From NCBI RefSeq assembly GCF_028641065.1, contig NC_073383.1, positions 46,190,001 to 46,254,000 of the forward strand: 64,000 nucleotides of DNA, in the 5' to 3' direction. Made by a program: the position numbers and the translations under genes. This DNA is from Leucoraja erinacea. Its lineage: Eukaryota. The notes beneath the pieces were generated by a model that did not search any database, was not told the origin of the DNA, and was given only the letters and a program-made list of their open reading frames with translations. Positions 5,952 to 64,000 of the stretch are shown piece by piece (position 1 is the stretch's first letter; each line of letters starts with the position of its first letter).

Positions 5952-8900
5952 CTGCAAAAAGAGAAAACAACATTAGTATTGAGATAGTGCAGAGCTGAAT
6001 GCTGAATAATCACCATCTCTGCATTAAATCTTGAATCCAGGGCACAAACAGTCTGCTGACCTTTGCTCCAGGGACCTGTAATGTCACGTGATGCCCAGTG
6101 ACCATCCCAACTTTCTTGCCTTTATAGTTTGGCTCAGGTAGTAGTATACCTCATCAGAGTAAAAAAGTTGTGGATCCCAGGCACAAACATGTCCCCAAGC
6201 CCATAAAAGGGGGATTGGGATAATCTACCACAAATGCAGGGCTTGTAATTAAATGCATTGGTATCCTCTTGCAATAGAGAGGAGGGGTACTAGCATTCGA
6301 GCCAGGTTAACCCAACTTCCAGTGTCAGTGGGGCTGGTTGAATGCAGGATTATCACAGCTCCCAATAGAGTGAGCAACAACTGCATGGATGGTGGAATTA
6401 TGTAAATAAGTATAACATGATTTCTGATGTGATTGATTGAGCTTCTTTCTGGGCATTTTGGATGAGAATTCTGAACAAACCTGTCACACTTTTTAGAACT
6501 CTTTGTGTTTCTCACCTATTATTCAGCACATAACTGCACCAAGCCCCCTCAAGGTACAGGTACCACAATGGCAATGAGAAGAATGGAAGATTTGAAGTAG
6601 TAAAGTTAAAGTCTTTAACCTGTCCACGTGAGTTATCTCACCAATTTCAATTTGGAATCCAGTACAGGGAATAAAGACAGTGTGTTTGGGATTACCGATT
6701 TAGGCCTTGCAATGATAAAGTAGGACTGTTGCAAGACAGCAGTGCAAACACAATCAAGCCCGATTGAAGGGAGCCTTGAAGTCAATGAGAGCCTTTCTAT
6801 TGTTCTGCAGAATGGATGAAATGTTTTCGGGACAAAAAATATCAGTAAAATTGAAGATAAATGTACCTGCTCAAAATGAAACCATAAAACTTAAAAAAAA
6901 AACATTATTGTGGTATGCTCTGGTGCTTCAGCCATGTAGCAGACCTCCTATGTCACATGATACAATAGATGTTGTATTCGATGAGATGATGGAGGATTAA
7001 TCACTTTAATAATGCACACTCAGAATTGTAGAAAATGCAAAAATTAAAAACAGTCACCAACGGTCAGAGAAGACCAGTAGTGATTATTTAGCAGTGTTAA
7101 AAAATGTGTCATGACATTATCATTTTAGCACTTTCCTGAACCAGGTACTGCAAGACAACTTTGTGTGCAGTTGAACAAACAAGTCATTTCAATCAAACCT
7201 ATCTGTTAAATCGGAGAATGGGACTGACAGCTGTTCTCCAAGGTTTGCCTGGGTCAAAATATCTCGTCAAATCCAGTTTGTTATGTGCACAAGTACAGTG
7301 ATGTCCAGGTACAGTGAAAATCTTGCTTACAGCAGCATCACAGGTGCAAATATCCCTTTTTAGCCCTGAAGAAATAAGTAAATGAATGTTTGAACATGTA
7401 TGTAAAACAGCCTTAGTGATGGAAGCAGCTTCTAAAAATCCCAAAGAATTTCAACCACACCTAGTTTTAATGTTAATGTTCATTGTTAATGCGCTAACAA
7501 GGATATAGGACAGTAGCAATTGTGGGAGCGCCAACATTCAGTTGGAGTCACATGGATATATGAATTGTCAAGCATCCAGGAAAGTCGTAGCCCACATAAT
7601 CTCAAATGTGCTCATTTACAGCAGCAGAATATTGTAACAAGGGCACAGAGCCTCCATGTGTAAAGCTAGACCTGGATTGCCAGCCAGAATAATGTCAGCC
7701 AGGTGAGCAAGAACAATACTAACAAAAGAAAGCTACAATAAGGTGACTTTTATCACAGTAAAGCTGGTGAACAACCTGATGGGTGGTATAATATCACACT
7801 TGTCACTAGCTGCATTAAGGAAAAAATAGTTTTTCTAAAATCAAATTGAACGTTAATAACCTGAAAACAGAAACTAGCATCGGTACAGCAGCTGACTACT
7901 TAATTGTGGCCAGAGATATGTATACTAAGAGGCTAGGCAAGGTGTTGATAAAACATTCCAAAACATTTAGTCAGATGTGACATGTAGCATATGATCATAA
8001 AAGGAAGGTGATCATTTATATTAACTAATTATACAAACATGCAAGATCTGTCAGGAAAAGATTGCCTTGCAGAATAAAAGTGGGATTAGAAGAATGAACA
8101 CTTCCAAAAATCATCTCGAGAAGCCTCCAGAGCAATTTGCAAATCTGTTTAAGGATTTATAGACAAGGATTAAGGGACACAAAGCCCATATGGACATTAA
8201 GCCAAATGTCAAGATTTATTGCATACCTAGACTGGTATCATATAGCCCAAAGGATCAAGTGGCGGAATAGGTAAACAAACACAAGTGACACAATGTTTTG
8301 GTCAAAACTGCAAACAATATGCGGGCAACACCCGTTGTGGTGCCCAAAATAATCTTCAACCAAGCTGTAGACAATAAACATTTTTTGCTTGTATCTCAAG
8401 ATCTGGGTGCACAATTGGCCTGCTTCAAAGTGAATCTTTCTCACATAACCACACAATTAAACACAACTGCACAATAGCAGAAGATAGACACAAAAAGCTG
8501 GAGTAACTCAGTGGGACAGGCAGCATCTCTGGAACGAGCATCAGCTGTTCCTTCCTGCACAATAGCAGTCCAGTTAGTGTACAATTGCCAAGACTGCAGA
8601 TCACAAGCTTCAAGATCACCAGCCCAAGTGTGAAGGGGTCCCCAGAATGCCCATCTTGACCACAACAAGATAGTCATGGGCAGCATCTTGGTGGACAATC
8701 AATCAAAATGGTTTGCAGCAAAGCATGTAGGGTCATGCTGCACCATCAAAGACACAGTAGAAGAACTCACATTCCAAGATGTCATCTCATGAGGAGGCTG
8801 TAATTTTGGTCTTTCCAAATGAGTACTTTATGAAACTAAGTAAGAATACACATCAGGTCTCCTCATCATCCTCAAACAAAAATGCTAGGAGGTTAGTTTG

Positions 8901-10057
8901 GACAGTAAAAAAAGAGACTGAAGACAAAGTTGTGAATAGCACTTAAAATATTATTACAAAGTTTTGGCTCTCGGATTTTCTTTCACAATTAGTTGATGTC
9001 TCGGTTCATTCCAGAGGACACGCCTGCCACTATCAATGCATATAAAAGCCAGGAGTGCGTTTCAGTCTGGTTCAGCCAAGTCTGGAAGCTGGGGGAAAGG
9101 CAGTTGAAACAAAGCAAACAGGAAGACACATTACTTTAAGGGGAGAAGTTCATTTTGAGTTTGAATGTACTCCAGTGACGAGTCCTACAATGGTTTAAAG
9201 AGCTGCCACAACCAATAAATGAGCAGAGACAAGAAGTGAGACCTTCAGAAAAACGAGATGCATTCTACATCACCAACATCTATTGAGTCACTAAGATTAG
9301 CACAAGCAGCACTGAATTTTAGAAAGATCAAAGTGAATTCAAGACGGGAATTAAACTTGCCAAACTATGTTTTGATTATTATGAAAGGCTGTAAAGATGG
9401 TAAATAATGTGATTTAATTTACGATGTGCTTGATCACAAGCTTATCATTGTTTGCAGTCTAAAAAGAACTTTAAAAAAAAAAGAACCAATTACATGTTCC
9501 ACAGTTCTTCATGTTTCCTGCGTATTACACTGTATGATACTGGACGAAAAACCGACAAGAGTACAGATATAAAGGGCAATTAAATCAATCAGTTACCATC
9601 CGGAGTCTGCAATTATCCCCCTCTTTTTACAAAGAAATCCTATTATGTAGCCACTTTTTATGAAGATTATTTCCAGAAAATGATAACATCCTGATTCCTA
9701 TGTTGCAAACATTAATCAACAGTGAGAAAACAACAAAATGTAAAGTACCAAACCACAAATCTAATCTAAATGCAATCATAGAATTGGATTGAAAATTTAA
9801 ACCCGCTATTTTTGTGGATCTGAATTTTGTTTCTGCTGCACTGCTCTCAAGGCTGCGGTTCCGTTTTGCTGCTCATTCTATGTATTTACACTTGATTTTC
9901 ACTTTTTGAGACTGTGAAGGACTTTTGATACAGAGTTATATACAGCAAAGAAAGGCTCATGTGGTCTCCCTCATTTACCTAATCTAGATAACCTTAATTT
10001 CCTTTTGTATTCTCTATTTACCTCGGTCTCTTCACATTCCTCATGACTGGTGAAAAC

Positions 10058-10310
10058 CATAAGACATAGGAGCTGAATTAGGCCATTTGGCCCATCGAGT
10101 CTACTCTGCCATTCAATCATGGTGGATTTAATTTTTCTTCTCAATCCCATTCTCCTGCCTTCTCCCCATAATGTTTGATGCCCTCATTAATCAAGAACCT
10201 ATCAATCTCCATTTTAAATATATTGGCCTCCGCAGCCCTTTGTGGCAATTAATTCCACAGATTCACCACCCTCTGGCTAAATAAATTCCTCCTCATTCCC
10301 CTTATCAGGT
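10058..10310 (-). mobile_element. Older CR1 LINE 3' end
   Basis: Diverged reverse complement of the CR1 3' UTR (cataagacataggagc..ggccatttggccc). Confidence 0.75.
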
Positions 10311-16220: not shown

Positions 16221-17242
16221 CTTTCTGATACCTTCCCAACTGCCCCTTCTCAACTTTGATTGGTCATGTGCCATAGATTTCCAAGCATCGATGAGGATTT
16301 GCGATTTTTTTCAATTTGCCTTGTAATCACTTCCGATGACAGAGCTTGGAACAGAGTACCTGCTTCGTGTTTCTTCATTCTAATGATGTTGATATAAAGA
16401 ATTATCTTCACCTCCGGCCAAACTGTACAATTAAGGTTACAACAATGACACCAACCATTAATGCAGAAAATTGCCCGCATACTGCATGTCCTGTCCATAA
16501 AGAGCAAGACAAATCCAATCTAGCTAATTATCACCCAAGAAACCAGCCTAAAAAGTGCACCCATTGGTATTCGTACTTGGTATTGCTCCCAAATATTATA
16601 GTTTTTGCTGGGAAAATAAAAATTGGACATTATTTTTGTCAAATCTGACAATTTATTATTCCCAAATTTAATTTATCATATTGGCCCAATGTATGGTACC
16701 TAATGAAACTGAAATGGGGCCAAATCGAAATGTTTAATCAATACTTTCTATCTCTAGTAATGCATTTGACAGAAAGAGTTTGCTGTTTTTCTGAACAAAA
16801 TGAAAGGATAATTTCCATTGTATATTCCATAAAATTGTACCATAGGTATATCTGGCCTCATAATGTTAGGTAGATACAAAAGAGATACAAGACCATCCAT
16901 AAAGCTATTCTACTTTAAGTCATGAAAAGTGTAATTAGATATATTTTATTAATTATTTTCTCAGGGAACCTTGTGTACTGGTCTATAAAATGAACAAAGA
17001 TTTGTAAGTTGTAAGTTGGACCACCAGCCATGTCACTAAAAATGAATGATTTTTCAGCGTGGTAGCGTGCCTAATTACGTGAAGTAAAAGGGCACACACT
17101 TTTATTTCTCAACAGAACACCATAGAATGGTCTGAAAAAGGATCCTGACCTGAAACGTTCCCTATCCATGTTCTCCAGAGATGCTGCTTGACCCGCTGAG
17201 TTATTCCAGAATTTATTTTTACCTTTCATAAACCTGCTTCTG

Positions 17243-18072
17243 TAGTGGATAAATGTGAGGTTATCCATTTTGGTGGCAAAAACAGGAAAGCAGACTATTA
17301 TCTAAATGGTGGCCGACTATGAAAAGGGAAGATGCTGCGAGACCTGGGTGTCATGGTACACCAGTCATTGAAAGTAGGCATGCAGGTGCAGCAGGCAGTG
17401 AAGAAAGCGAATGGTATGTTAGCTTTCATAGCAAAAGGTTTTGAGTATAGGAGCAGGGAGGTTCTACTGCAGTTGTACAGGGTCTTGGTGAGACCACACC
17501 TGGAGTATTGCGTACAGTTTTGGTCTCCAAATCTGAGGAAGGACATTATTGCCATAGAGGGAGTGCAGAGATGGTTCACCAGACTGATTCCTGGGATGTC
17601 AGGACTGTCTTATGAAGAAAGACTGGATAGACTTGGTTTATACTCTTTAGAATTTAGGAGATTGAGAGGGGATCTTATAGAAACTTACAAAATGCTTAAG
17701 GGGTTGGACAGGCTCGATGCAGGAAGATTGCTCCCGATGTTGGGGAAGTCCAGGACAAGGGTCACAGCTTAAGGATAAGGGGGAAATGTGACCTTTAAAA
17801 CCGAGATGAGAAGAACTTTTTTCACACAGAGAGTGGTGAATCTCTGGAACTCTCTGCCGCAGAGGGTATTCGAGGCCAGTTCATTGGCTATATTTAAGAG
17901 GGAGTTAGATGTGGCCCTTGTGGCTAAGGGGATTAGAGGGTATGGAGAGAAGGCAGGTACGGGATACTGAGTTGGATGTACACAAAAAAGTTGGATGATC
18001 AGCCATGATCATATTGAATGGCGGTGCAGGCTCGAAGGGCCGAATGGCCTACTCCTGCACCTAATTTCTATG
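17243..18072 (+). mobile_element. Young CR1 LINE 3' fragment
   Basis: ORF 17332-17772 [21 protein letters not shown] is the CR1 RT C-terminus; intact 3' tail. Confidence 0.93.
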
Positions 18073-18210
18073 TAGTTCCTTTTTTTAAACCATGAAATGG
18101 TTAATGCAACACAGAAGACAACTCAGGGAACTCACACAAAATTTGACTGTGATTATCAAAGAAAATTAAAGCATACAGATATTTTTGATCCTCCAAGTAA
18201 TATTTCACAA

Positions 18211-18402
18211 TGTGTAGGATGGAACTGCAGGTGCTGATTTACACCGAAGATAGGAAACAAAATGCTGGAGTAAATTCAACGGGACAGGCAGCATCTCTGG
18301 AGAACGGATGGGTAATGTTTCAAGTTTTCCAGTCTGAAGAAGAGTCTCGACCCGAAACCTCGCCCATTCCCACTCTCCAGAGATGCTGCCGCTGAGTTAC
18401 TC
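18211..18402. mobile_element. Penelope-derived fold-back element with hammerhead motif (18334-18361)
   Basis: Inverted arms ggcagcatctctggag / ctccagagatgctgcc around CTGAAGA..GAAAC. Confidence 0.7.
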
Positions 18403-18579
18403 TAATATCTCACAAATGTTAAGTATTTAAACATTGTCTTTGAAATGGAGGCATCTGCTTTTGATTACTGTGAAAGCTGGAGGTTTGTGCTTGCTGAATC
18501 GGTGCCGAGGAATAAACTTCAAAATAAGGCCACCGATAAACCTGATACCTTCTGTCTCCCTCTCACACTTCTTTCTCAC

Positions 18580-19310
18580 TCAGTCACGACTGATGGGGCA
18601 TGTTCTACCCAGCGGGCTACTCGCGGCTGCACCCGCCCTATTAACCAAAGATTATAGAGGAGCTCCTCTAGTATCTTTGCTATAAACTGATAACTGTTAA
18701 CTGCAAACTATTAACGCCGCCGCCCGTAATGCTGGGATGAGTCAATTCTCCATAGCCGCCTCTCACTCTGCTATAGGATCTTTGCTTGGAAGAGCGAGAG
18801 AGGTCCAGCATCCAGGGGGGCGGGTCGGTCGGCTGGCGGCTGATCCAGGGGATTGTGAAATCCAAATCCATAACCACGGGTATAGTTGCATCCAGCGTGC
18901 GCCACGGTGGCTGGATACCCGGATGGTTTACAATGTGACGCCGGCCGTGTTGTTACCGCCGGCCCGGTAAGAGTGTGACACTGGTTCCCGCAGCCAATGG
19001 CCTGCGCGAATGGAACGGGGTGGCCGAGGGCCGTGGTCCAATGAGGTTGCCGATGGAGCCAAGCCGGAGGCCGGCTCGTGGATGTTATTGAGGCGGCGGA
19101 ATGCGGCGAGCCGCCGGCAGCGGGCCGCTGCTCCGGGCTTGACCGCACGCCTCGGCCACACTTCGGCCCGTCGACGCAGCTGCAGCCACTGCAGGCCACA
19201 CAGGTAGGAGCCGGGATCATGCGGAGAGGAGAGCGCACCGGTGGGACAGGCAATGGAAAGAGACGGGTCGGGTCGGGTCGGATGTGCGCCTAGGCCACGG
19301 GGTTAACGCA
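18580..19310 (+). promoter_or_regulatory. CpG-island promoter of HYCC2 with CCAAT boxes and a non-coding first exon ending near 19203
   Basis: High CpG density in a CpG-depleted window; CCAAT at ~18994 and ~19038; donor CAG|gtagga at 19203/19204; additional donor CCG|gtaaga at 18966. Confidence 0.7.
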
Positions 19311-19429
19311 CAAGGGCAGAGTGGAGAGAAGAGGGTGAATGGGTGGGGAGAATGAATGGGAAGTAAGTGTGTGTGTGTGTGTTGGGTAAACACCAGAGAT
19401 TGCAGATACTGCAATCGTGAGTAAAACGT

Positions 19430-19635
19430 ATCACAAAAGTGCTGGTGGAACTCAGCAAGTCAGGCAGCATCTGAGAACGGAATGGGCGGACGACGTTTAT
19501 GGGTTGGACCCTTCTCCAGACTCCAGGCAAGGTTTAGGCAGGAGATAGACTCAAAAAGCTGGAGTAACTCAGCGGGACAGGCAGCATCTCTGGAGAGAAG
19601 GAATGGGTGACGTTACGGATTCGAGACCCTTCAGG
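19430..19635 (-). mobile_element. Two tandem Penelope-derived tail copies
   Basis: acaaaa-gctggagtaactcagcgggacaggcagcatct-like sequence twice, each followed by a degenerate reverse hammerhead. Confidence 0.7.
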
Positions 19636-20193
19636 TTTAGGCAGGGTCAGCTACTATCCGAAGTGGAGTGTTCCGATCTCTGATCCGTTCCAAATAGTTG
19701 GCCCATGCCCTGCTATTCCTGTGATGACTGTTCGTTGATGTGTTCCAGTTGAATCGTACTTCCTCTGTATCGTCTGATCTACACACGGTATTGCATTTTT
19801 CTGTTGCACGTCGAAGATAATCATTAACAGTATTTGTTGGGGGGGCGGGTCTGGGGCTGGAGAGAGAGAGAGCAGAGGTTACATGCACAGACTGGTTGCA
19901 CTGTTCAGGGACAAGGTATAATAAACACCTGATTGCTGTGACCGTGACGTTTGGCATCTGTGCTGTATAAGTTCAGTTCTCATTATAAGCTGCTGCACAA
20001 TTTTATGTTTGTTTATTGTCAGGTGGCTAACTGTTCTATAAGGCATCACACATTCTTGGAAACGTAGTAGATGTAGTAGTGATGTGAATTTTAATTGAAA
20101 TCCTTGTTTACACTACTCTTTATCTTGACCTTCCCTGTATTTCTCTCCAGCAGTTTCTTTTTGCTTAGGATTTCAGCATCTACTGTCCCTTGT

Positions 20194-22604
20194 AACATAG
20201 AAAATAGGTGCAGTAGCCCATTCGGCCCTTTGAGCCTGCACCGCAATTCAATATGATCATGGCTGATCATCCAACTCAGCATCCTGTGCCTGCCTTCTCT
20301 CCATGCCCCCTGATCCCTTTAGCCACAAGGGCTACATCTAACTCCCTCTTAAATATAGCCAATGAACTGGCCTCAACTACCTTCTGTGGCAGAGAATTCC
20401 ACAAATTCACTCTCTGTGTAAAAAATGATTTTCTCATCTCGGTCCCAAAAGACCGAGATGAGATCCTTAAACTGTGACCCCTTGTTCTGGACTTCCCCAA
20501 CATCGGGAACAATCTCCCTGCACCTACCCTGTCCAGCCCCTTAAGAATTTTGGAAGTTTCTATAAGATCCCCCCTCAATCTTCTAAATTCTAGCGAGTAC
20601 AAGCCCAGTCTATCCACTTTCTTCATATGAAAGTCCTGCCATCCCAGCAAGAATGTCTTTCCTCAGATTAGGAGACCAAAACTGTACACAATACTCCAGG
20701 TGTGGTCTCACCAAGGCCCTGTACAACTGCATTAGAACCTCCCTGCTCCTATACTCAAATCCTTTTGCTATGAATGCTAACATACCATTCGCTTTCTTCA
20801 CTGCCTGCTGCACCTGCATACCTACTTTCAATGAATGGTGTACCATGACACCCAGGTCTCGTTGCATCTCCCCTTTTCCTCATCGGCCACCATTCAGATA
20901 ATAGTCTACTTTCCTGTTCTTGCCACCAAAGTGGATAACCTCACATTTATCCACATTATACTGTATCTGCCTTGCATTTGCCCACTCACCCAACCTATCC
21001 AAGTCACCTTGCAGCCTCCTAGCATCCTCCTCACAGCTAACACTGCCCCCCCAGCTTCGTGTCATCCGCAAACCTGGAGATGTTGCATTCAATTCCCTCG
21101 TCCAAATCATTAATATATATTGTAAATAGCTGGGGTCCCAGCACTGAGCCTTGCGGTACCCCACTAGTCACTGCCTGCCATTGTCAAAAGGACCCGTTTA
21201 CTCCTACTCTTTGCTTACTGTCTGCCAGCCAGTTCTCTATCCACATCAATATTGAACCCCCAATACCGTGTGCTTTAAGTTTGTATACTAATCTCATATG
21301 TGGGACCTTGTCGAAAGCCTTCTGAAAGTCCAGATATAACACATCCACTGGTTCTCCCTTATCCACTCTACTAGTTACACCCTCGAAAAATCCTATAAGA
21401 TTCGCCAGACATGATTTACCTTTCATAAATCCATGCTGACTTTGTCCAATGATTTCACCACTTTCCAAATGTGCTGCTATCCCATCTTTAATAACTGACT
21501 AGCATTTTCCCTACTACCGATTTTAGACTAACTGGTCTGTAATTCCCCGTTTTCTCTCTCCCTCCCTTTTTAAAAAGTGGGGTTACATTAGCTACCCTCC
21601 AATCCTCAGGAACTACTCCAGAATCTAAAGAGTTTTTGAAAAATTATCACTAATGCATCCATTATTTCTGGGGCTACTTCCTTAAGTACTCTGGGATGCA
21701 GCCTACCTGGCCCTGGGGATTTATCGGCCTTTGATCCATTCAATTTACCTAACACCACTTCCCGACTAACCTGGATTTTACTCAGTTCCTCCATCTCATT
21801 TGACCCCTGGTCCCCTGCTATTTCCGGCAGATTATTTATGTCTTCCTTAGTGAACACAGAACCAAAGTAGTTATTCAATTGGTCTGCTATGTCCTTGTTC
21901 CCCATGATCAATTCACCTGTTTCTGACTGCAAGGGACCTACATTTGTTTTAACTAATCTTTTTCTCTTCACATATCTATAAAAACCTTTGCAGTCAGTTT
22001 TTATGTTCCCTGCCAGTTTTCTTTCATAATCTATTTTCCCTTTCCTAATTAAGCCCTTTGTCCTCCTCTGCTGCACTCTGAATTTCTCCCAGTCCTCTGG
22101 TAGGCTGCTTTTTCTGGCTAATTTGTATGCTTCATCTTTTGTTTTGATACTATCCCTGATTTCCCTTGTTATCAACGGATGCACTACCTTCCCTGATTTA
22201 TTCTTTTGCCAAACTGGGATGAACAATTGTTGTAGTTCATCCATGCAGCCTTTAAATGCCTTCCATTGCATATCCACCGTCAACCCTTTAAGAATCATTT
22301 GCCAGTCTATCTTGGCCAATTCACGTCTCATACACTCAAAGTTGCCTTTCTTTAAGTTCAGAACCCTTGTTTCTGAATTAACTATGTCACTCTCCATCCT
22401 AATGAAGAACTCAACCATATTATGGTCACTCTTGCCCAAGGAGCCACGCACAACAAGACTGCTAACTAACCCTTCCTCTTGACTCAATACCCAGTCTAGA
22501 ATAGCCTGCTCTCTCATTGGTTCCTCTACATGTTGGTTTAGAAAACTATCCCGCATACATTCCAAGAAATCCTCTTCCTCAGCACCCCTGCCAATTTGAT
22601 TCAC
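20194..22604 (-). mobile_element. CR1 LINE, ~2.4 kb 5'-truncated copy (end of endonuclease plus RT, frameshifted, internal deletion)
   Basis: ORFs 21606-22604, 21184-21468, 20610-20867 and 20276-20650 carry SDHNMVEF, KSPGP, YLDFQKAFDKVPH and [11 protein letters not shown]; 3' tail at ~20194. Confidence 0.95.
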
Positions 22605-22699
22605 TCCCTTCCTTTCACCATGTGCAGTTTTAATTTAAAGGCAAGAATAAACTGCAACTTTTTTCAACACAACATCAGGTATCTCATTGAATGCAAGTA

Positions 22700-28057: not shown

Positions 28058-28251
28058 TGAGTTAATATGCAGATGGCTGGATTTGCAGTTGCTGTGTGTG
28101 TCTGTGCCCACCTACTGTCAGGCCTGGTAACAGTGGACCTAGAATATATGCATTTTATTCAATAATACAAGGTAAAACCGATCACCACATCCCTATAGTA
28201 TTTGAATTGCAATTATATCATTGCATGAAACATTGTGCTGTACTTACAATA

Positions 28252-39285: not shown

Positions 39286-39399
39286 CTTTGTATAATTGGT
39301 TATTGGGAATAGTGAGGAATTGGCATTGCTTGAAGAGTGAGACAAGATTCAGGAACACTCTGAGTTTATAAATGCAAACGATTTGCATTTCTGGCCTAA

Positions 39400-44130: not shown

Positions 44131-44164
<34 letters not shown>

Positions 44165-44370: not shown

Positions 44371-44680
44371 ATGGAACGGTACAGCACTGGAACAGGCCCC
44401 TTGACCCACAGTATGTGTGATGCCAAGTTAAACTGTATGACATCTGTACTCATGTCTCACTCTGTCTGGATAAGGGCTGCCCTTGGGTAAACCCTTCAAC
44501 TTAAAGGAGCAGCACTTGGTATGAGAGTCTCTGTCTGACACCTGTATTTAATGTTCTGTGCTCTGTCAATATTCTGTATTCTCTACTGTCTCTCCTTGTG
44601 TATTGTACTATCTTCACTCTGTCCTTTCCCCTTGGCCTGCTGGACAGGGTGTACGCTAAATGTTTTGTGTTGAATCCCAG

Positions 44681-44839
44681 ATTGTGTTGACCTCCTATTT
44701 GATGCTGAGTCAAGCGACCCCACCTCCCTAACCTGTGACTCGTCTGAATTGACCGGAGAGCGCAAGAGGAATGGGGAGGGGATGCCAGTGGCGCCCAAGC
44801 ACAGTCAGCAAGAACCAGCAGCTGTGGCAACGGCAGAGG
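44681..44839 (+). CDS. HYCC2: HYCC2 alternative (cassette) exon, phase 1-1; frame stays open to TAA at 44958 if the donor is skipped
   Basis: cccag|AT TGT..GCA GAG G|gtaggc, 159 bp, (N)CVDLLFDAESSDPTSLTC..EPAAVATAE; resembles a recalled alternative FAM126B exon. Confidence 0.7.
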
Positions 44840-47672: not shown

Positions 47673-48245
47673 TCCCACCAAAACCACCCCTCCCCAGGTA
47701 CTTTCTCTTGCAACTGTAGGAGCTTGAAGGAAGGAGGGGCAGGTCAAAAACTGGCAAGTAATGAATGGATAGAGGGCTGAATCTCCTGGTTGCTAACCAT
47801 GTTAATTCCCCATTACCATACTGATCTTTGTTCTGGGCCGCCTCCACTGCCAGAGTGAGGCCCACATGCCCCCCCCCCCCCCCCCCCCGCCCACCCCCCC
47901 CCCCTCCCCTGTGCCTCTCCTGGACTCACAGCGACATCCTCTTACTTTACAGTTTGGGACTCTTCAATCCTTTTGTCTCGCACCTTTTGTCATTTCATCT
48001 CTGGCCTTTGTCTTCGTATCTGCCTATCAGCCCCCATCACCTCTATCCATCTATTAGTTACCAGTCTATGTCCTGTCCCTCCTCTCTTCAAGCTTTCTTT
48101 TCCACCACCGTCTCCTCACAATCAGGAAGCCCTGACACAAAACGTCACCCATCTGTGTTCTCCAGGGTGCTGCCTGACCTGCTGAGTTACTCCAGCAGTT
48201 TTTTTGTTTTTTTAAACAAGCATCTGCAGTTCCTTGTTTCTGCAT
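47673..48245 (+). mobile_element. Rearranged Penelope-like 3' fragment
   Basis: PGTFSCNCR remnant, VANH..LHCQSEA remnant, pyrimidine-rich UTR, then the same tail ending gcatctgcagttccttg. Confidence 0.6.
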
Positions 48246-48587: not shown

Positions 48588-48782
48588 CAGATGGATACAA
48601 AAAACTAGAGTAACTCAGCAGGTCACACTGCATCTCTGGAGAAAAGGAATGGGTGACGTTTCGGGTCGAAGGAACGTCTCAACCCGAAACGTCACCTATT
48701 CCTTTTCTCCAGCGATGCTATCTGACTCACTGAGTTACTCCAGCTTTTTGTGCCTATCTTCGGTTTAAACCAGTACCTTCCT
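48588..48782. mobile_element. Penelope-derived fold-back element
   Basis: ggtgacgtttcgggt / acccgaaacgtcacc central inverted repeat with extended arms. Confidence 0.75.
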
Positions 48783-49540
48783 ATTTATTTATACAGCACT
48801 TTTACAACATTTCTTGCCCCAAACCACTCTGCAGCCAATTGTATACTTTAAGCATAGCTACTGTTGCAATACATGAATTTCAGTATTTGTTTTGCACAGA
48901 CAACTCTCATAAGCAAAAACATGGTAATAATTGGATGTTTCATTTGATTGATCTGGAAAGATTGTCTGGGTGATTGAGGGGAAAGCACACAAGGTCCATA
49001 TCTCAAGACTAACGCTCAGGCAGGTAGCTCACCAACAACTTCTCATGGGCAGTTAAGGATGGGCAATTAAATGCTGGCTCAGCCTGCAAAGTCCAGATCC
49101 TCTGAATAAGTAGTAAAAATACTTCAAATGGTGTAATGGATTAATTTGAGAGGGCAAAGTGAACTTAATGTGAAAGATGATACCTCTGACAGTGCAGTCG
49201 TCCAAAGGATGTACACTGGGATAATGGAACCGAATGTTTGAAATTACTCAACTGAATGGGTTGGAGTACATGTGAAAGAAGTAATGTCAGGCTGAAGGGC
49301 AGGTAGTGTGGAGTCTTATCGGGTTATTGGTTACTAATCTACATAAACTAATGAAATTGGATGCAACTAGTGATTTAAAAGGAGGCAATTTTATAAAGAA
49401 CTGCAGGATTTATTGATTGATTTTAAAACAAATGTGCATGTTCTCGTATATTCCACCTTCGAGCTAACTCTCGTTTCCCCAGACCCTAATGTACTCATTG
49501 AACTGCAACTCTCCACGTCCAACAAAATAACTTGCTTTTT

Positions 49541-49573
49541 GTCTGAAGAAGGATCTCGACTCGAAACGTCACC
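49541..49573 (+). ncRNA. Minimal hammerhead ribozyme motif at the head of a Penelope tail copy (copy extends to ~49636)
   Basis: gt-CTGAAGA-A-GGAT(CTCG)ACTC-GAAAC-GTC-acc; stem II partly mismatched. Confidence 0.5.
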
Positions 49574-50009
49574 CATTGCTTCTCTCCATAGAAGCTGCCT
49601 GTCCCGCAGAGATACTCCAACATTTTGTGTCCATCTTTGCTTTTTTTTTTTTTTTTTTTTTTAATTCACTTCAACTTCCATCGGCCCTACAACCATCCCA
49701 GATATTTGCACTCTGGCCTTCCATTACTTTGCACATCCCTGAATTCAATAGGTCTACTCTATCACAACTTGCCAAGTCTTTGGAATACCTTCCATAAACA
49801 TCTCTGCCCATCTAACAATCTGCTCCATATGAATTGTCACTTTGAGTAATATACATTACTTTTTATGTGGTGCAGCAGTTTTTTTTTTCTCCTTCATGAA
49901 AACATTGTAAATGCAAGTTGTCTTGTGTGTTTGCGGACAGAATACTAGATTCTTTAGTTTTGGGTAGTGAAGACAGGAGTGTGAGTGGTCGGTGTGACGG
50001 ACCTGATGA

Positions 50010-50546
<537 letters not shown>

Positions 50547-54619: not shown

Positions 54620-55095
54620 CCATGGTTGGGTAATTCAAGGTATAATTATCAAAAAATTATCAAACATTTCCTGTGTAAAGGATACTTCTCTCTAATTAGA
54701 GTAAACAAGCAAGGAACAGGTATGTTACAAGTAGATGTAGGTGTAATATAAAATATTTTCAATATGACAAGTGTAAACAAGCAAGGAATTGGTGTTATTT
54801 TAAGGTATGATTATCACAAATTTTCTGTGTAAATTAAGAAGTGACAAGCAAGTAAAATGTTTAAGAAGGTACTGCAGATGCTAGAAAATCAAAGGTAGAC
54901 AAATGCTGGAGAAACTCAGCGGGTGAGGCAGCATCTATGGAGCGAAGGAAATAGGTGATGTTTCGGATCGAGACCCTTCTTCAGACAAGTAAAATGTTAT
55001 TTTAAGGTGCAATTAAAAAAATTACAGTATAAATTAAGGGTAAACGGGCAAGTAAACTTATTTCAAGGTGTAATTATCAAAAAATGTCTGCATAA
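54620..55095. repeat. Degenerate ~60-bp tandem repeat
   Basis: Recurrent tt(c/t)aaggt..aattatca..tgtaaa..aaacaagcaag units. Confidence 0.55.
54862..54985 (-). mobile_element. Short Penelope tail insertion with hammerhead motif and 13-bp TSD
   Basis: caagtaaaatgtt at 54849-54861 and 54986-54998; minus strand reads gtCTGAAGAAGGGTCTCGATCCGAAACATC. Confidence 0.8.
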
Positions 55096-55284: not shown

Positions 55285-58200
55285 CTGCTGGACACCTCTC
55301 TGCACCCTCACTGCTGGACACCCCTCTTCACCTTCTCTGCTGGACACCTCTGCACCCTCGCCCTCAGAGACAACCTCTCTGCTGCTTCCTGCAGCTGCTC
55401 GGGCTCCTCATCATGCTCAAATACTCAACTCTGCAACTGATTGGTCTCTTCAACAACTACATCCCATCCTGCATCCAAGTCATTAAAGAGCTTAGACTTC
55501 TACGTCGACCCCGTTTGGTCCACAGAGGCTCTCGATGCAAGCTTGTTTACTTCAACCACGGACTTTCCATTCCATCCATCTGCTCACTACCACGCTATGC
55601 ACCCCCCCCCCCCCCCCCCCCCCCCCCCACCCCCCCCCGCGTCACCCCCCCCATCCCAGCTGACCGCACGCACTGTCAACTGGGACAACTTCAGATCTCT
55701 CCAGCCTGCCCCCATCCCTCCACCCTCTCACAATGCCAACTTTGCCCTCCTCAACACCAGGTCGCTCAACAAAAAAGCCCTTGTCCTCCATGAACTAATC
55801 CGTGACAACACTCTGGACTTCCTTCTGCTCACTGAAACCTGGCAACAACCCAATGTCTTCTTCTCCCTCAATCAAGCATCCCCACCTGGATTTAATGACA
55901 TTTCCAAACCCCGCCCCTCCAGCCATGGAGGTGGCCTCGCTGTTATTTTCAACCAGAACTTTCGGATCACTGAACTCACCCTCCCCCCAGTAGCATCATT
56001 TGAATTCCTCGCCTTCAAAGCCCTTTCCTCCATGACAAGTCATCCTCATTTACCGGCCACCTAAACCAAACCCCTCCTTCCTATCTGACTTCACTGAACT
56101 CCTCACACTTGCCTCATCCCTCTCCCCCACGTCTGCTGCTACTTGGTGACTTAAATATTCACATGGACTCCCCCACCTGCAAGCTCGCATCTGAATTCGC
56201 CTTTTTACTTGACAACTTCTCTCTCACTCAGCACGTCACCTTTCCCACCCATGACAAAGGTCACATCCTTGACCTGGTCTGCTCCATAAATCAACCTGTA
56301 CTCGACCTCCATCCATGCCTCTTCCCCCTCTCTGATCATAAGCTTATACGGTTTACCATCGCTTCTCCGACACCTCGCCCCCGCTTCCACCCGTAATCTA
56401 AAATCCATTGATCCCCACCATCTCTCTGACCTGCTCTCCACCACTCTCCCCCTGGACGCAACCCATATCTCACCTGATGATCTCACCAACCATCTCAACT
56501 CCACCTTGTCTACCTCCCTTAACATTCTGGCCCCCCTCAAAACAAGAACCGTAACTTTTAACACATCTTCACCCTGGTACACACCTGCACTTCGTAAGCT
56601 CGAAACCCTGGTCACTTCCACCCAAATAATCTCACCAGATGATCTTACCCCACCCATCTCCTACAAAGATGCCCTGCTGCTGCAAATCTGCCTACCTCTC
56701 TCCCCCAACCCATGCCTCTTCCCCCTCTTCTCCACAGTGGGCAACCTGGGTCTTGACTCGAACACATCTCCCCCCTACCATCCGGATCTCGTGCATCTAT
56801 CTCCTCCACCTGATGATCATAAATCCAGCACATCTCAACTCCCTGTACCCGACTCCCCTGCTCTTCCACCACTCTTCTGGCCCCCCTCAAATCACATCTC
56901 CACACTGAATCCTCTCCCACTTGGACCTGCACTTCGTAAGCCAACAGACTGGTCAAACCAACTCACTGAACGCCTCCGCCCAAATTCTGGCCCCCTCAAA
57001 ACAAGAACCGTAACTTTTAACACATCTTCACCCTGGTACACACCTGCACTTCGTAAGCTGAAACAGACTGGTCACCAACTTGAACGACTCACAAATAAAT
57101 CATCTCTCACAGTCCACCATGAAGCTTACAAACTCCACCTCACTGCCTACAAAGATGCCCTCATTGCTGCAAAATCTGCCTACCTCTCCTCCATATTCAC
57201 CAACCCCTGCCTAAACCACAGAACCCTCTTCTCCACAGTGGGCAACCTCCTCAAGCCTCGAGCCAACACTCTCCCTACCTCTACTCCGGATCTCTGCAAC
57301 TCACTCCTCCACTTTTTTGCTGATAAAATCAGCACCATCTATCAATCTTTATCCCCTGTACCCGACTCCCCAGTATCTACTCCACCACCTACCAAGGCCC
57401 CTCCTTTCAACATCTCCACTGACCTCCTTACCCCTCCTCCACACTGCTTCCTCTCCCAGTTTGACCTGGTCACCCCTACTGAAATCGCCAAACTCATCAG
57501 CTCTTCCAAACCCACTACCTGCTCCCTCGACCCTCTCCCCATTCCCCTGCTGAAGTCCTGCCTCCCCGTTCTCTGCCCATACCTCACTAATCTCTTCAAC
57601 TCCTCATTGTCCCAAGGAATTGCTTTCAAAACTGCTGCTGTCACACCAATCTTAAAGAAATCTGGTCTTGATCCCTCCTCTCTCATTAACTACCGCCCAA
57701 TCTCAAACCTCCCCTTTCCTTCAAAAACCCTGGAGCGTATCGTTGCGTCACAGCTTAATTCCCACCTCCTTGCGTATAACCTATTTGAACCCCTCCAATC
57801 TGGCTTTCGCCCCCTCCATAGCACAGAAACTGCTCTCCTCAAAGTACTTAACGACCTCCTCACCTCTGCTGACACTGGTTCCCTCAACATCCTCATCCTC
57901 CTCGACCTGAGTGCAGCCTTCGATACAGTGAACCATAACATCCTGCTTACCAGACTTAGGGACCTTGGCATTGAAGGTTCTGCACTCAGCTGGCTCTGTT
58001 CCTACCTTTCCAACAGATCCCACTTCATCTCTCTGCATAACCACACCTCTGCTACAGCCACAGTCACTCAAGGCGTTCCCCAAGGCTCCGTACTCGGCTC
58101 CCTCCTCTTCATCATCTACATCCTCCCATTTGGTCAGATACTCCACCACTTCAACCTGGACTTCCACTGTTACGCCAATGACACCCAGATCTACCTCGGC

Positions 58201-58846
58201 ACCAAATCCCCCCACAACCCCCCCCCTCCCATATCAACTCCTGTTTGTCAGCTATAAAAACCTTGATGCAACATAACTTCCTCAAACTCAACAGCAATAA
58301 AACAGAATTCCTCCTCATAGGCTCCAAATCCACACTCAGCAAAATCAATAACCCCACTCTCACCATCGACGGCACCACTGTCTCCCCATCTCCCCAGGCC
58401 CGCAACCTTGGCGTGATCTTTAATTCCGCCCTCTCCCTTGAGCCTCACATCCGCCATGTCATTAAAACCTCCTTCTTTCATCTCTGCAACATCGCCAAAA
58501 TCAGACTCTCTCTCACACCTCCCGCTGCTGAAAGACTCATCCATGCCTTCATCTCCTCCCGACTGGACTACTGCAACTCACTTCTCCTTGGCATCAGCTC
58601 CACCTACATCAACCGACTCCAACTGGTCCAGAACCCAGCCGCCCGACTCATCACCCACACCAAATCCTGGCATCACATCACTCCAGTCCTCAAACAACTT
58701 CACTGGCTTCCCATCTCCCACCGGATCACTTACAAAATCCTGGTCCTCACCTACAAAGCCCTCCACTATCTGCCCCCCCCCCCCATATCTCACCCCCCCT
58801 CCTCTCCCCCTACCAACCCTCACGGTCCCTCAGATCCACATCAGCT
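55285..58846 (+). mobile_element. Near full-length L2-clade LINE (APE endonuclease plus RT), frameshifted
   Basis: LLNTRSL..LTETW, GGGLAVI, LGDLNIH, SDHKLI (EN); [35 protein letters not shown] (RT, YADD mutated); SRLDYCNSLL and HITPVLKQLHWLP are the L2-type C-terminus. Confidence 0.92.
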
Positions 58847-58849
58847 GAG

Positions 58850-59795
58850 CTGGCCTCACTTTTCTGCATTTGGCCCATATCGCTCAATGTTTTGCTATCA
58901 TGTACCTGTCCAAAACGTCTCTTGGTGTCTTAATTGTACTTGCCTCGACCACTTTCTCTGGCAGCTTATCCCAAACAACTAGCTCAAGGTGCTAATCTCG
59001 CCAACCTCTCCTTATAACTCAAACCCTCCAGACCCAATAACATTCTCGTACATCTATTTTGCACTCTTTCCAGTTTAATGACATCTTTCCTACACCAGGG
59101 GAACCGGAATTGTGCACTGTATACCAAATATGGCCTTAGCAACACCTTGATCAACATGATACATGATGTCCCAACTCTAATACTGAATGACTGATGAAAG
59201 CTATTGTGCCAAATGCCGCTTTCTCCACCCTGTCTACTTATATTGCCATTTTAATAGAACTATATGTGTAGGAAGGAACTGAAGATGCTGGTTTCTACCG
59301 TAGCCACAAAATGCTGGTTAACTCCGCAGGACAGGCACCATCCTTGGAGTGAAGGAATCTGTGACGCTTTGGGTCAAGACCCGAAACATCATCCATTCCT
59401 TCTCTTCATAGAATTATATACTTGTACCACAACGTGTCTGTTCTACTACACTATAATTTAGAACATAGAAAGGTACAGCACAAGAACAGGCCCTTTGGTC
59501 CACAATATCTTTTCAGAACATGATGCCAAGTTATGCTAATCTCCTCTGCCTGCATGTGTTTATTTAAAAAATACTATTGTAGCTGCCCTTACCATCACCA
59601 TTGGTAGTATAACCCAAGCACCCATCATCCTTTACAAATCTCCTTTAAACATTTCCCCTCTCACCATAAAATGATGCTCCCTGTTTGGTAACATTTACAC
59701 CCTGGGTTCTGACTGTCTACCCTATCTATACCTCTCATAATTTTATATACTTCTATCCGGTCTCTTCTCAACTTCCGTTGTTACAGAGAGAACAG
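58850..59795 (-). mobile_element. Old CR1 fragments with an embedded Penelope tail (59265-59405)
   Basis: Reverse CR1 3' ends (tagaacatagaaaggtacagcacaagaacaggccc) and RT remnants. Confidence 0.6.
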
Positions 59796-60259: not shown

Positions 60260-60414
60260 TAAAATGATGTAATATAGGGAGGTTGCACAGCAGTCGGGTC
60301 ACGACCCGTGACCCGTACTGTTGCTATGCTACGCCAACTGGATTGCATGCGATGAACTGCAGGTATGCACTGACCATTGTTTCCAGCGTAGCGTGCCCAT
60401 TAAAACCCACCAAA

Positions 60415-60634
60415 ATGGTCAATTTTTGCACTGTAAATAATTATGGAAATCGGGATAAGCGTGAGAGACATTTATCCTACTTCAGAATTCCAAAAGTGAG
60501 GAGAAATGACGGTAGATAGAAGCGAGAGCTGAAGGGACAACAACAGCCAAAGAGCTTAGTGAACATTGGCCGTGCAGATATCGAGATTGAAAATATTGGG
60601 AATTATCGCGTTTGCTCACTGCATTTCATCAACA
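60415..60634 (+). pseudogene. THAP zinc-finger exon remnant, left arm
   Basis: MVNFCTVNNYGNRDKRERHLSYFRIPKVRRNDGR*KRELKGQQQPKSLVNIGRADIEIENIGNYRVCSLHFIN|gtaagg; one in-frame stop. Confidence 0.75.
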
Positions 60635-61095
60635 GTAAGGCATTATTTGTGTTTTTTTCTTGATTCCCTTTGCATCTAAACAGTTTCAGAAGTGATAAAT
60701 CTGGCTGTAAAATTTTAAAATCACCCATGGTTCTCAAGTGTGTTTTTACATACAAAAAAAACGCCTCTGAAGCAAAATTTATCATTAAAAAAAAATCGTA
60801 AACCATACGTGGGTTTTGAATTACATTGTACTCAGATACAAGCCAAGGAATGGCATAATTGTTAGCTGTTAATTGGACATAATCAACCTCAGCAAATTGA
60901 CAATATCCTATTGAAAGGGAGTGGGTGTTTAAGCTGTCAGGACATTTTATTATTTCCCAAAATATACCTCAATAGCATAATGATAGAAAACCTACTTTTC
61001 CACACACCACTCGTAAGTCTGGAGATTTTTTTAATGATAAATGTAGCTTCAGAAGAGTTTTCTTTTTGCATGTAAAAACACAAATAATGCCTTAC

Positions 61096-61309
61096 TGTTG
61101 ATGAAATGCAGTGAGCAAACACGATAATTCCCAATATTTTCAATCTCGATATCTGCACGGCCAATGTTCGCCAAGCACTTTAGCTGTTGTTGTCCCTCAT
61201 CTCTCGCTTCTCTTTACCTTCATTTCTCTTTTGGAATTCTGAAGTGGGATAGATGTCTCTCACGGTTACCCAGACTTCCACAATTATTTACAGCGCAAAA
61301 ATTCACCAT
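61096..61309 (-). pseudogene. THAP zinc-finger exon remnant, right arm
   Basis: MVNFCAVNNCGSLGNRERHLSHFRIPK..(small deletions)..CLANIGRADIEIENIGNYRVCSLHFIN|gtaagg. Confidence 0.75.
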
Positions 61310-61654
61310 TTTGGCAGGTTTTAACAGGTAGGAAAGTACGCGTTTCGTGTATTAACAACATATACCGGAAGCTGCGATGTCCTCCAGATGGATTGAGCGG
61401 CTCCATACGGTAAGCCCTTTGACCCAGTGACCTTACGTGCAACCCCTCTATTACGGCTGGGGGTCAGCCTTTCCTTGCGTCAAATTTCCTATCAGACTCC
61501 ATCATTTACAGCCGTCTCCACCTATCACCACCCAGTCTTTGCCAGTGTCACCATCTCCAACTTTCATTCCCTCATCTGACACCATCTGCCAAACTACTCC
61601 ACCTACACTGCATCCACATATCGTGTATCTCCATCTCTCTGCCCGTGCTCCTTC

Positions 61655-62140
61655 CCCGTATCTCCACCCCCCGTATCTCCACCCCTCCGGCCCCCCCGTA
61701 TCTCCACCCCTCCGGCCCCCGTATCCCCACCCCTCCCCACCCCTCCGGCCCCCGTATCTCCACCCCTCCGGCCCCCGTATCTCCACCCCTCCGCCCCCGT
61801 ATCCCCACCCCTCCGTATCCCGTATCCCCACCCCCCCGTATCCCCCCCCCTCCGGCCCCCGTATCCCCACCCCTCCGGCCCCCGTATCCCCCACCCCTCC
61901 GGCCCCCGTATCCCCACCCCCCGGCCCCCCGTATCCCCACCCCTCCGGCCCCCGTATCCCCACCCCTCCGGCCCCCCGTATCCCCACCCCTCCGGCCCCC
62001 GTATCCCCACCCCCTCCGGCCCCCGTATCCCCACCCCTCCGGCCCCCGTATCCCCACCCCTCCGGCCCCCGTATCCCCACCCCTCCGGCCCCCGTATCCC
62101 CACCCCTCCGGCCCCCGTATCCCCACCCCTCCGGCCCCCG
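61655..62140. repeat. 23-bp C-rich minisatellite (ggcccccgtatccccacccctcc)n, about 20 copies
   Basis: Directly visible tandem array; the minus strand is G-run rich. Confidence 0.95.
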
Positions 62141-62179
62141 GATCTCCAGCTCCCTCGGTCTCTCGCCTTCTTGGCTGTG

Positions 62180-62235
62180 ATTGGCTGCGCCTGCCGTTCC
62201 CCTGATTGGCTAAGAGGCTGAGCGCCGGTGATTGG
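62180..62235 (+). promoter_or_regulatory. Three inverted CCAAT (NF-Y) boxes of the ORC2 promoter
   Basis: ATTGG at 62180, 62205 and 62231, evenly spaced in CpG-rich DNA just 5' of the ATG. Confidence 0.7.
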
Positions 62236-62258
62236 TCGCCGCTGCCCTTTGCCCCGCG

Positions 62259-62343
62259 ATGGCGGCGCGGAGTTTGCGGTCCCGCGAGCTGCGGTTCGTC
62301 AGCGACGACGACGTGTTGGGGCACATCTCGGAGAGAGCGCCGG
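62259..62343 (+). CDS. ORC2: ORC2 first coding exon; gene continues beyond the right edge
   Basis: MAARSLRSRELRFVSDDDVLGHISERAP(G)|gtgagg matches the recalled ORC2 motif EVHFVGDDDVLNHI; ORC2 also follows FAM126B in tandem in human. Confidence 0.85.
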
Positions 62344-62640
62344 GTGAGGCGGGGAGGGGGAGAGGGAAGAGAGAGCTCCGGGTGAGGAGGGAGGGAGAGG
62401 GGGTGGGAAGAGAGAGCTCTGGGAGAGAGAGGGAGAGAGGGAGAGGTGGGGAGAGGGAGAGGGAGAGAGAGAGAGAGAGAGCGGAGAGCTCCGGTGAGCT
62501 CCGGGTGAGGGGGAGGAAGAGAGAGAGCTCTGGGTGAGAGGGGGAGCTCCGGGTGAGGTGCGGAGAGGGAGAGAGCGAGGGAGAGCTCCGGGTGAGAGGG
62601 AGCTCTGGGTGAGGTGGGGAGAGGGAGAACAGAGGTGAGA
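62344..62640 (+). repeat. G/A-rich degenerate tandem repeat (gagagctc(c/t)gggtgag) at the start of ORC2 intron 1
   Basis: About 8 copies of a unit matching the exon 1/intron 1 junction. Confidence 0.8.
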
Positions 62641-62819
62641 GCGCCGCGTGAGGGGCCAGATCTGGGGACGGCGGCGTGGTGTGGAGCTGGTGTGAAGCTG
62701 GTTTGAGGCACATCTCCAAGTCTAGGGGTTGATGCCAGAGGCTGGGCAACACCTGTGAGAGACCGGAAGGTCAGGCAGGGCCAGGGCATGTCACTATCCG
62801 CTGACATGACACTAGCAGC

Positions 62820-64000
62820 ACATAGTCATACAACATAACAATAAGCCATTCTGCCCAACTTGCCCATGCCGCCCATGATGCCCCCATCTACACTAGTCCT
62901 ACCTACCTGCTTTTGGTCCATATTCCTCTAACCTTTCCAAAGCATGTACCTGTCTAAATGTTGTTCAAGTGTTATTATAGTACCTGCTCAAATGCCTCCT
63001 CAGCACCCTCTGTGTGGAAAAAGTTGCATGTCAGGTTCCTATTACATTTTTGCCTCTTACCTTCAGCTATGTCCTTGGTTCTTGATTTCCCCTACTCTGG
63101 ATTAAAAAAACTGTGCATCTACTCTATCCCCCTCATGACCGCTTTAAGATCACCGTCATCCTTCTGCGCTCCAAGGAATATAGTTCTAAACTATCCAACC
63201 TCTCCCAATAGTTCAGTCCCTCAGGTCCTGACAGCATCCTTGTAAATCTTCTCTGCACTCTTTCCAGCTCATCAACATCCTTCCTATAGTAGGTGACCAT
63301 AACTGAACACAATACTTTGCCAACGTTTTGTGCTACTGTAACATAACATCCCAACGTATACTCAATATAGTCACAAAATGCTGGAGTAACTCAGCAGGAC
63401 AGGCAGTATCTCTGGAGTGAAGGAATGGATGACATTTTGAGTCGAGACCCTTCAGATTGATGTTGGGAGTGGGAGATACATAAATAAGGAAATGTAAGAT
63501 GTGAAAACAAGACACACAGATAAAATGTAATCGGAGACAGTAAGACTGGTCGGAGAACTGGGAAGGACGAGGGATGGAGCGAGAGGGAAAGCAAGGGTTA
63601 CTTGAAATTAGAGAAGTCAATGTTCATACCGCTGGGGTGTAAGTTGCCCAAGCGATATATACTCAACAGCTTGACTGAAGAAAGCCAATGTACTGAAAGC
63701 CTTCTTGATCACTCTATATACCTGTGATGCCACTTTCTAGTAACTACGTATCTGCACAACTAGATCCCTCTGCTCTACAACACTCCCCAGAACCTTGCCA
63801 TCCACTGTGCAGGCCCTGTCCTGATTTGACTTCCCAAAATGCAACACTCGCACTTATCAGCATTAAACTGCATTAACCATTCTTCAGCCCACTTGCCCAA
63901 CTGACTAAGATCCTGCTCTAATTTTTGATAATCATCTTCACTCTCTATGATACCAATCACTTCATTGTCATCTGAAAACTAGATAATCGTGCTTTCTAGA
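62820..64000 (-). mobile_element. CR1 LINE fragment with a nested Penelope 3' end (63366-63657)
   Basis: YRKDVDELERVQRRFTRM and LGKWAEEWLMQFNADKCE motifs; the insert is flanked by a tatactcaa duplication (63357-63365 and 63658-63666). Confidence 0.8.

Follow-up and report, generated by a model that had tools for sequence, protein, structure and literature searches.

The 64,000-nucleotide stretch of the little skate (Leucoraja erinacea) genome analysed here (assembly GCF_028641065.1, contig NC_073383.1, positions 46,190,001 to 46,254,000 of the forward strand), hereafter the window, contains the host gene HYCC2 (FAM126B) and, within and around it, a dense family of short repeats headed by a minimal hammerhead ribozyme motif. 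HYCC2 occupies 26763–50546 (+) from start to stop codon; its 10 coding exons were mapped with the skate hyccin-2 protein, and the span given covers these coding exons. The open reading frame (ORF) at 50010–50546 matches FAM126B/HYCC2 proteins, the best named match being little-skate hyccin 2 (99% over the last exon). A profile search, with a profile built from the window copies and a model seeded on the hammerhead motif, recovered 20 loci with 28 arms of the repeat family between 8479 and 63453, a density of 312 loci per Mb in the window. An earlier note on this DNA, made from its letters alone, had reported about 20 copies, and this number holds; all 14 positions that it listed fall on family copies. 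The size given there was 100–240 bp; 17 loci span 59–241 bp, and three longer fragments of Penelope-like elements (PLEs) span 292–570 bp, all spans having been set by hand. Beyond that account, we found seven inverted-pair loci, target-site duplications (TSDs) and remnants of PLE ORFs. The identity of the arms to the family majority ranges from 73 to 94%, and half of them (14/28) are solo.

Solo arms whose first base is G2.2, where the hammerhead has its 5′ edge, lie at 17130–17246 (+; core broken by G8 to A and a stem I mismatch), 19397–19521 (−; old, core broken), 27098–27190 (−; A9 and G12 changed) and 49541–49636 (+; directly after a 9-bp TSD, with an intact core and a stem II containing one G·U pair and one A·C mismatch). 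The arm at 54862–54986 (−) runs from G2.2 to the end of its tail between perfect 13-bp TSDs, and its palindrome is broken (G16.2 to A). Other solo arms start at model position 8 (19543–19632, −; perfect 13-bp TSD) or 6 (45705–45797, −), and two short arms possess no hammerhead part (8479–8537, −, starting at model position 41; 25151–25210, +). The locus at 46248–46414 (−) consists of two arms arranged head to tail, the upstream arm having a parent-type pyrimidine-rich flank and the core being broken; this degenerate doublet aside, tandem arrays of the family are absent from the window.

Inverted pairs were identified at 7 of the 20 loci, each with a tail of ~35 bp on one arm only, and the inversion junctions differ at all seven. 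The tail is on the left arm at 18211–18402 (13-bp TSD; the sense motif at 18332 lacks the palindrome and one stem II pair) and at 29878–30052, where the junction lies inside the motif and the 5′ half of the hammerhead is absent, and on the right arm at 39047–39287 (perfect 14-bp TSD). In the sense motif of this last locus, at 39149, position 17 is U and an insertion of 2 nt interrupts stem I. The pair at 31016–31176 (14-bp TSD) carries a degenerate sense motif at 31081, with a G·G mismatch at 10.1–11.1 and the palindrome lost. At 35322–35524 (15-bp TSD), no core base is changed in the sense motif at 35431, which has two G·U pairs in stem II and is enclosed in a perfect helix of 47 bp. The remaining pairs, both with 12-bp TSDs, have their junctions inside the motif (48590–48786, CTGA lost) or inside stem II (59266–59407). 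Overall, TSDs of 9–15 bp flank 10 of the 20 loci; among 400 random spans, one reached the score in question. An inverted partner arm and a one-sided tail have been described for PLEs (PMC8557442), and the optional tail is explained in the account of PMC11167929 by two start sites of the reverse transcriptase (RT). As a separate observation, the fold-back loci at 18211, 29878, 31016, 35322, 39047, 48590 and 59266 are predicted to form hairpins of −46 to −150 kcal/mol, the extreme value belonging to the locus at 39047; five of the seven are in HYCC2 introns, and their transcripts could be double-stranded RNA substrates for editing.

Four copies extend into ORF-bearing or parent-type sequence. 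The clearest is the PLE 3′ fragment at 34022–34711 (−), which comprises a GIY-YIG C-terminus (34711–34631 and 34437–34318), a stop codon, a pyrimidine-rich 3′ region and the motif at 34130, in which G8 and U16.1 are changed. The frame at 34437–34318, upstream of the motif and in the same orientation, matches GIY-YIG-type proteins (E 2.6e-12), and the C-terminus continues at 34711–34631, beyond an inserted repeat (E 5e-7). This insert, at 34436–34638, is a 203-bp piece of another repeat family with copies at 20184 and 28253, and it splits the endonuclease remnant. A second PLE 3′ fragment, at 63366–63657 (−; 9-bp TSD), contains an ORF end, a different 3′ region and a motif with a 3-nt deletion, and the sequence at 63660–63569 is 83% identical over 92 bp to the 34-kb endonuclease remnant. 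The arms at 34130 and 63453 each follow, on the same strand, the stop codon of the reading frame and a stretch rich in pyrimidines. The fragment at 47674–48243 (+) is degraded and retains a weak ORF remnant (11-aa match, E 0.005), the 3′ region, a deleted motif and the tail.

The parent family was identified with a broken PLE GIY-YIG remnant at 1285–1640 (−), which has no recognised motif arm; its part at 1311–1640 retrieved 248 proteins at E ≤ 0.001. Among 10 of these relatives that were scanned, Pfam GIY-YIG was found in 7 and RVT_1 in 5 (E ≤ 0.01, mostly under curated cut-offs). In the long relatives, the RT is followed by a CX4CxxC linker and a C-terminal endonuclease with CxxC inside GIY-YIG; the linker precedes the endonuclease in two of them, P0256 and P0282, the window holding degraded traces only. 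A CX2-5CxxC linker upstream of GIY-YIG is given in PMC8557442 as the layout of Neptune and Nematis PLEs, and the motifs in the relatives, considered without a tree, suggest that the parent clade is probably of the Neptune or Nematis type. A word-index protein search with a 53-aa remnant returned no match, and an Atlas search gave top scores of 0.80, with one GIY-YIG cluster at 0.76 that serves as a lead only. Judged by their sequence, the repeats are 3′-end fragments of PLEs, corresponding to the pseudo-long terminal repeat (pLTR).

The majority sequence of the family is a minimal type I hammerhead, with the CUGANGA and GAAA-N-N-U-H core in type I order. The first strand of stem I (2 nt) is followed by CUGANGA and an extra A; stem II, of 4 bp, is capped by a loop of 4 nt; and after it come GAAA, the C-G within the ACGT palindrome, U-C and the second strand of stem I, again of 2 nt. 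This layout agrees with the architecture of PLE minimal hammerheads recognised in the earlier note. The motif pattern has 7 matches at ≤ 3 mismatches in the window, compared with 0.00 expected (none in 100 shuffled sequences). Between 9 and 10.1, the additional base is A in 16/16 arms; among 13 aligned arms, the G10.1–C11.1 pair is G-C in 7 and the palindromic 15.2–16.2 is C-G in 7; and stem I is 2 bp without extension in 10/12 arms, with a 1-bp extension in two broken ones. The minimal hammerhead was defined in PLE repeats by Cervera and De la Peña (2014, PMC4209133), and the skate motif shares with the metazoan examples of that paper the two boxes, the extra base, the G10.1–C11.1 pair and the palindrome without loop 3, as well as the position at the element 3′ end and the occurrence as mostly solo truncated copies with close opposite-strand pairs, the vertebrate copies being numbered there in the thousands. 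It differs in its short stems: skate stem II has 4 bp and stem I 2 bp, whereas 7–8 and 4–5 bp are given for Schistosoma, helix I of Drosophila virilis also having 2 bp (PMC4209133).

Individual copies are less well preserved than the majority. The motif quoted in the earlier note as contained in many repeats is indeed that of the family majority, but none of the 28 arms is identical to it. The motif start is spanned by 12 arms; CTGANGA and GAAA are both kept in 6 of these, and the whole core together with U16.1, H17, the ACGT palindrome and a 2-bp stem I is kept in 2 (35431 and 49541), in both of which stem II is weakened. A descriptor search of the window, of the kind suggested there for the genome, agrees, with a single strict site (35433) and two relaxed ones (35433 and 49543), and 0 in 60 shuffles. 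No hammerhead family is among the 8 Rfam matches of the window at E ≤ 5, and motif scans of viral contigs and of metagenome contigs gave 0 matches each.

Abundance was assessed in four public sequencing runs, two of DNA size and two of RNA, matched to the solo copy 54862–54986 at 80% likeness; the species of the RNA runs is not necessarily that of the window, and the DNA runs also contain the neighbouring HYCC2 exon. A run search returned no match recorded as RNA, which says nothing about expression. The two DNA-size runs contained 59,323 and 45,464 contigs matching the family, which supports the earlier expectation of a very high copy number genome-wide; summed contig depths were not taken as copy numbers, and an exact copy number is not derivable from them. 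In the two RNA runs, the family makes up ~0.13% of reads (9,321 of 7.3 M and 24,092 of 17.6 M). The abundance is apparently above the 4,000–9,000 motifs of coelacanth and Xenopus given in PMC4209133, although those are descriptor hits and the skate figures are homology matches. Up to 120,000 retrozyme copies are given for axolotl in PMC7229834, so that high copy numbers are not unprecedented.

The same runs show the state of the catalytic core across the family. Among the variant positions listed, G12, which is described in PMC6155905 as the hammerhead general base, has given way to A in 18% of the contig depth of each DNA-size run and in 16% of the reads of run X21, and the non-catalytic CpG of the loop is changed in 9–12% of contig depth. 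Decay at the catalytic G12 is no slower than at the loop CpG, and G12 is not protected; the G12-to-A share also differs by direction (21% vs 15%), a difference that is uninterpretable. In the single-cell run X23, family reads over 54950–54989 number 14,508 on the plus strand and 1,804 on the minus strand, a skew of ~7- to 9-fold over the motif and ~4-fold downstream. Transcripts that carry the motif mostly antisense could give this skew, but so could A-rich internal priming, and we made no use of it. A peak of loose read ends at 54986 does not separate truncation from continuation into parent sequence, and the reference copy has lost 3 bp, which confounds a step in depth at 54900. All four runs (two contigs, one contig, one read and 21 reads, respectively) contain a joint that skips 135 bp at 54859–54995 and represents a site without the element, either an empty-site allele or a paralogous site; since the flanks of this copy are themselves multi-copy, the site may be paralogous.

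We consider it very probable that the repeats are independent 5′-truncated pLTR insertions of PLEs, the hammerhead of which was inherited from the parents and is likely inert and decaying. Following published PLE work, the GIY-YIG endonuclease of the parent would nick AT-rich DNA, and reverse transcription would start at one of two pLTR sites, giving arms with or without the ~35-bp tail. Solo arms or fold-back pairs would result as synthesis then stops or changes strands close to the hammerhead. The motif would be constrained only in active master elements, as a protein-assisted dimer, and splicing would remove the copies in HYCC2 pre-mRNA like any other intronic repeat, several of them in the form of long hairpins. 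The insertions resemble those described for PLEs (Craig et al. 2021, PMC8557442; PMC11167929) in the inverted partner, the one-sided tail of 30–40 bp, the strong 5′ truncation and the AT-rich targets. They differ in that the skate loci mostly measure 60–240 bp and that truncation and inversion points cluster at the hammerhead, a clustering not found in the parts of these two papers that were searched.

Several points weigh against an origin by PLE truncation with an inert motif. The parent is seen in the window as endonuclease ends only, with no full-length element, and a Pfam scan of the four window remnants gave no relevant family. The locus edges used for the TSDs were set by hand after the sequence had been viewed. 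The excess conservation of the core that the earlier note had put forward as a check is present: non-CpG differences amount to 10/162 (6.2%) in the core and 209/1453 (14.4%) downstream (p = 0.002), the core differing less than the average downstream position. The majority motif itself is not predicted to form stem II (pairing probability 0.02), so equilibrium folding, which takes no account of tertiary contacts or protein, may miss protein-assisted or co-transcriptional states. Finally, the lack of a pile-up of molecule ends at the cut site in two RNA runs (poly(A) and single-cell, 6% and 1% read, species uncertain) is a weak test. As regards conservation, the search model that recovered the arms had itself been seeded on the motif; two other blocks common to all subfamilies are nearly as conserved as the core (23/258, 8.9%; 29/351, 8.3%), which fits a constraint on master elements, not on copies.

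Between 17130 and 54986, the 5′ ends of the truncated copies cluster at the first base of the hammerhead. Among the 24 arms without parent-type upstream sequence, 9 have G2.2 as their first base, two of them being TSD-bounded there, and the right-hand arm of all seven inverted pairs starts within the first 25 model positions; the first column of the model was set from G2.2-starting arms, and parent sequence may have gone unrecognised in some of the flanks upstream. No arm (0/28) starts at the scissile bond, 30 nt downstream of G2.2, the nearest start being 3 nt upstream of the bond, and we rejected cleavage as the source of the 5′ ends on this ground. Clustered 30 nt upstream of the bond, the 5′ ends argue against cleavage as the step that generates the template for insertion. 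The parent-type flanks are 71–79% pyrimidine and, at 34130 and 46414, end in TAG or CAG with the G being G2.2. They resemble a 3′ splice site at the first base of the motif, and the intron of the D. virilis Penelope ends at helix I according to PMC4209133. The clustering may be due to such a splice site or to a tiny hairpin folding back at stem I. We put forward tentatively, and as an idea with the balance of probability against it, that the 5′ edge of the hammerhead is a fixed stop and strand-switch point of PLE reverse transcription, yielding ribozyme-headed elements of 100–130 bp, with a copy number of the order of 10^5 in a skate genome as extrapolated from the window, and seeding introns with long double-stranded hairpins. 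If so, the motif would shape its own spread without cleaving.

The recurrent start at G2.2 could also be expected if the short copies derived from dedicated non-autonomous masters, SINE-like (short interspersed nuclear element) or retrozyme-like, that start at the hammerhead and use the PLE protein in trans; animal retrozymes have been proposed in a preprint to be non-autonomous PLE derivatives (bioRxiv 2026.07.22.740005). The skate repeats resemble such non-LTR retrozymes (Cervera and De la Peña 2020, PMC7229834; bioRxiv 2026.07.22.740005) in being short, non-coding, high-copy and PLE-linked and in having a type I hammerhead, and the preprint names one chondrichthyan with retrozymes. However, at least three sequence variants share the G2.2 start, and the extension of four copies into ORF-bearing or parent-type sequence and the different junction at each of the seven inverted loci do not suggest fixed short masters. 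In addition, retrozymes are described in PMC7229834 as tandem arrays with canonical hammerheads, active and giving rise to circular RNAs, whereas the skate copies are dispersed, solo or inverted, carry the minimal motif and include one head-to-tail doublet. We therefore regard dedicated masters as improbable, and PLE truncation remains the preferred explanation.

A further question is whether the copies could cleave HYCC2 pre-mRNA. The four copies named in this connection in the earlier note (31083, 35433, 39151 and 49543) do lie in sense orientation in four different HYCC2 introns, and it was suggested there that two motifs on one pre-mRNA could pair and cleave. On such a reading, pairing of sense intronic copies via the ACGT palindrome would add a genome-wide layer of RNA processing. 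Two of these copies keep all core bases, potential partners are abundant in view of the family's share of RNA reads, PLE minimal hammerheads show no cleavage as monomers and a low level as dimers in vitro (PMC4209133; dimer cleavage by Lünse et al. is also recounted in a review, PMC6765202), and for the majority motif a 4-bp intermolecular helix III adds −3.1 kcal/mol. On the other hand, closing its 2-bp stem I costs +7 kcal/mol, and the dimer hammerhead of the majority is predicted at −5.7 kcal/mol, compared with −21.1 kcal/mol for the best fold. For natural-copy dimers, the hammerheads are at +2 to +13 and the best alternatives at −17 to −25 kcal/mol, a gap of 23–30. Folded in their own flanks, 6/6 plus-strand motif copies have a stem II pairing probability below 0.01, and the forced hammerhead fold costs 7–33 kcal/mol, most at 35431 (32.7) and 39149 (28.9), both of them buried by their antisense arm. 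The core-intact copies 35431 and 49541 are 14 kb and five coding exons apart in different introns; the other two named copies are damaged, 31083 by its G10.1·G11.1 mismatch and missing palindrome and 39151 by U17 and the interrupted stem I.

Neither covariation nor orientation, both proposed as checks in the earlier note, favours cleavage. In a small sample of 13 arms from one species, none of the 6 pairs in stems I and II is altered at both of its bases, and the mean of the shuffles exceeds the covariation score, 338 of 500 shuffles scoring as high. The one double change in the palindrome, CG to TA at 34130, is what CpG decay on both strands would produce and was not accepted as covariation. 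Arms in the coding span are 7 sense and 10 antisense (p = 0.63), solo arms being 2 sense and 5 antisense, so no orientation bias appears; G12, as described above, is unprotected. Frangieh et al. (2024, PMC11167929) report that the anole PLE hammerhead is active only with its protein and dispensable for insertion in vitro, with no RNA-seq reads ending there. Cleavage of the host pre-mRNA would be a major result if true, but the evidence stands against it: we regard it as very unlikely, and the copies likely do not cut host RNA.

Amniote intronic hammerheads such as that of RECK are few-copy, conserved and canonical motifs. Like them, some of the skate motifs lie within introns on the sense strand; unlike them, the skate copies are decaying repeats without helix III, one of which has an empty-site counterpart. 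Conserved intronic hammerheads of this amniote type, RECK included, are named in PMC6155905.

That the palindromic loci are miniature inverted-repeat transposable elements or microRNA-like hairpins with an incidental likeness to hammerheads is scarcely credible: the predicted folds of seven loci are long hairpins (−46 to −150 kcal/mol) and the best Rfam matches are weak microRNA-precursor models, all below the gathering score, but the arms are unequal, the junctions differ, the TSDs measure 9–15 bp, solo arms account for 14 of the 28, PLE ORF ends are followed by the same arm, and the extra base between 9 and 10.1, G10.1–C11.1 and the palindrome are as in PLE hammerheads. The microRNA-type Rfam identities were rejected as sub-threshold and caused by the hairpins.

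The known motif class is extended to skates, and one of their very common repeats is shown to derive from PLEs, a point of relevance to the annotation of repeats. A literature search joining hammerhead, Penelope and skate found no paper, and those joining Penelope, hammerhead and shark do not concern this family; skates and sharks are not named in the searched portions of the text and supplements of PMC4209133, the remaining supplements of which may list cartilaginous fish. A copy-rich genome such as this one is a good test set for the function of PLE hammerheads, through core versus neutral substitution, orientation in introns and the position of truncation points relative to the cut site.

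Further features of the window were noted. A probable alternative coding exon of HYCC2 lies at 44680–44838 (+), with a 62–83% match to longer isoforms of other elasmobranchs. Two regions are CpG-rich (observed/expected 0.56–0.82): 18001–20000, which may be the HYCC2 promoter, and 61001–63000, which may be that of a neighbouring gene. A frameshifted element resembling a long interspersed nuclear element (LINE) is present at 55441–58982 (+), with endonuclease- and RT-like frames of up to 655 aa, and fragments of an RT-encoding LINE-like family occur in both orientations at 17245–17980, 20184–22634, 28250–28860 and 46550–47670. An element of ~925 bp with long inverted arms (88–96% complementary) at 60400–61324 is possibly a non-autonomous DNA transposon, and GC-rich tandem arrays are located at 61632–62204 and 62308–62652 (23- to 24-bp unit and purine-rich unit).

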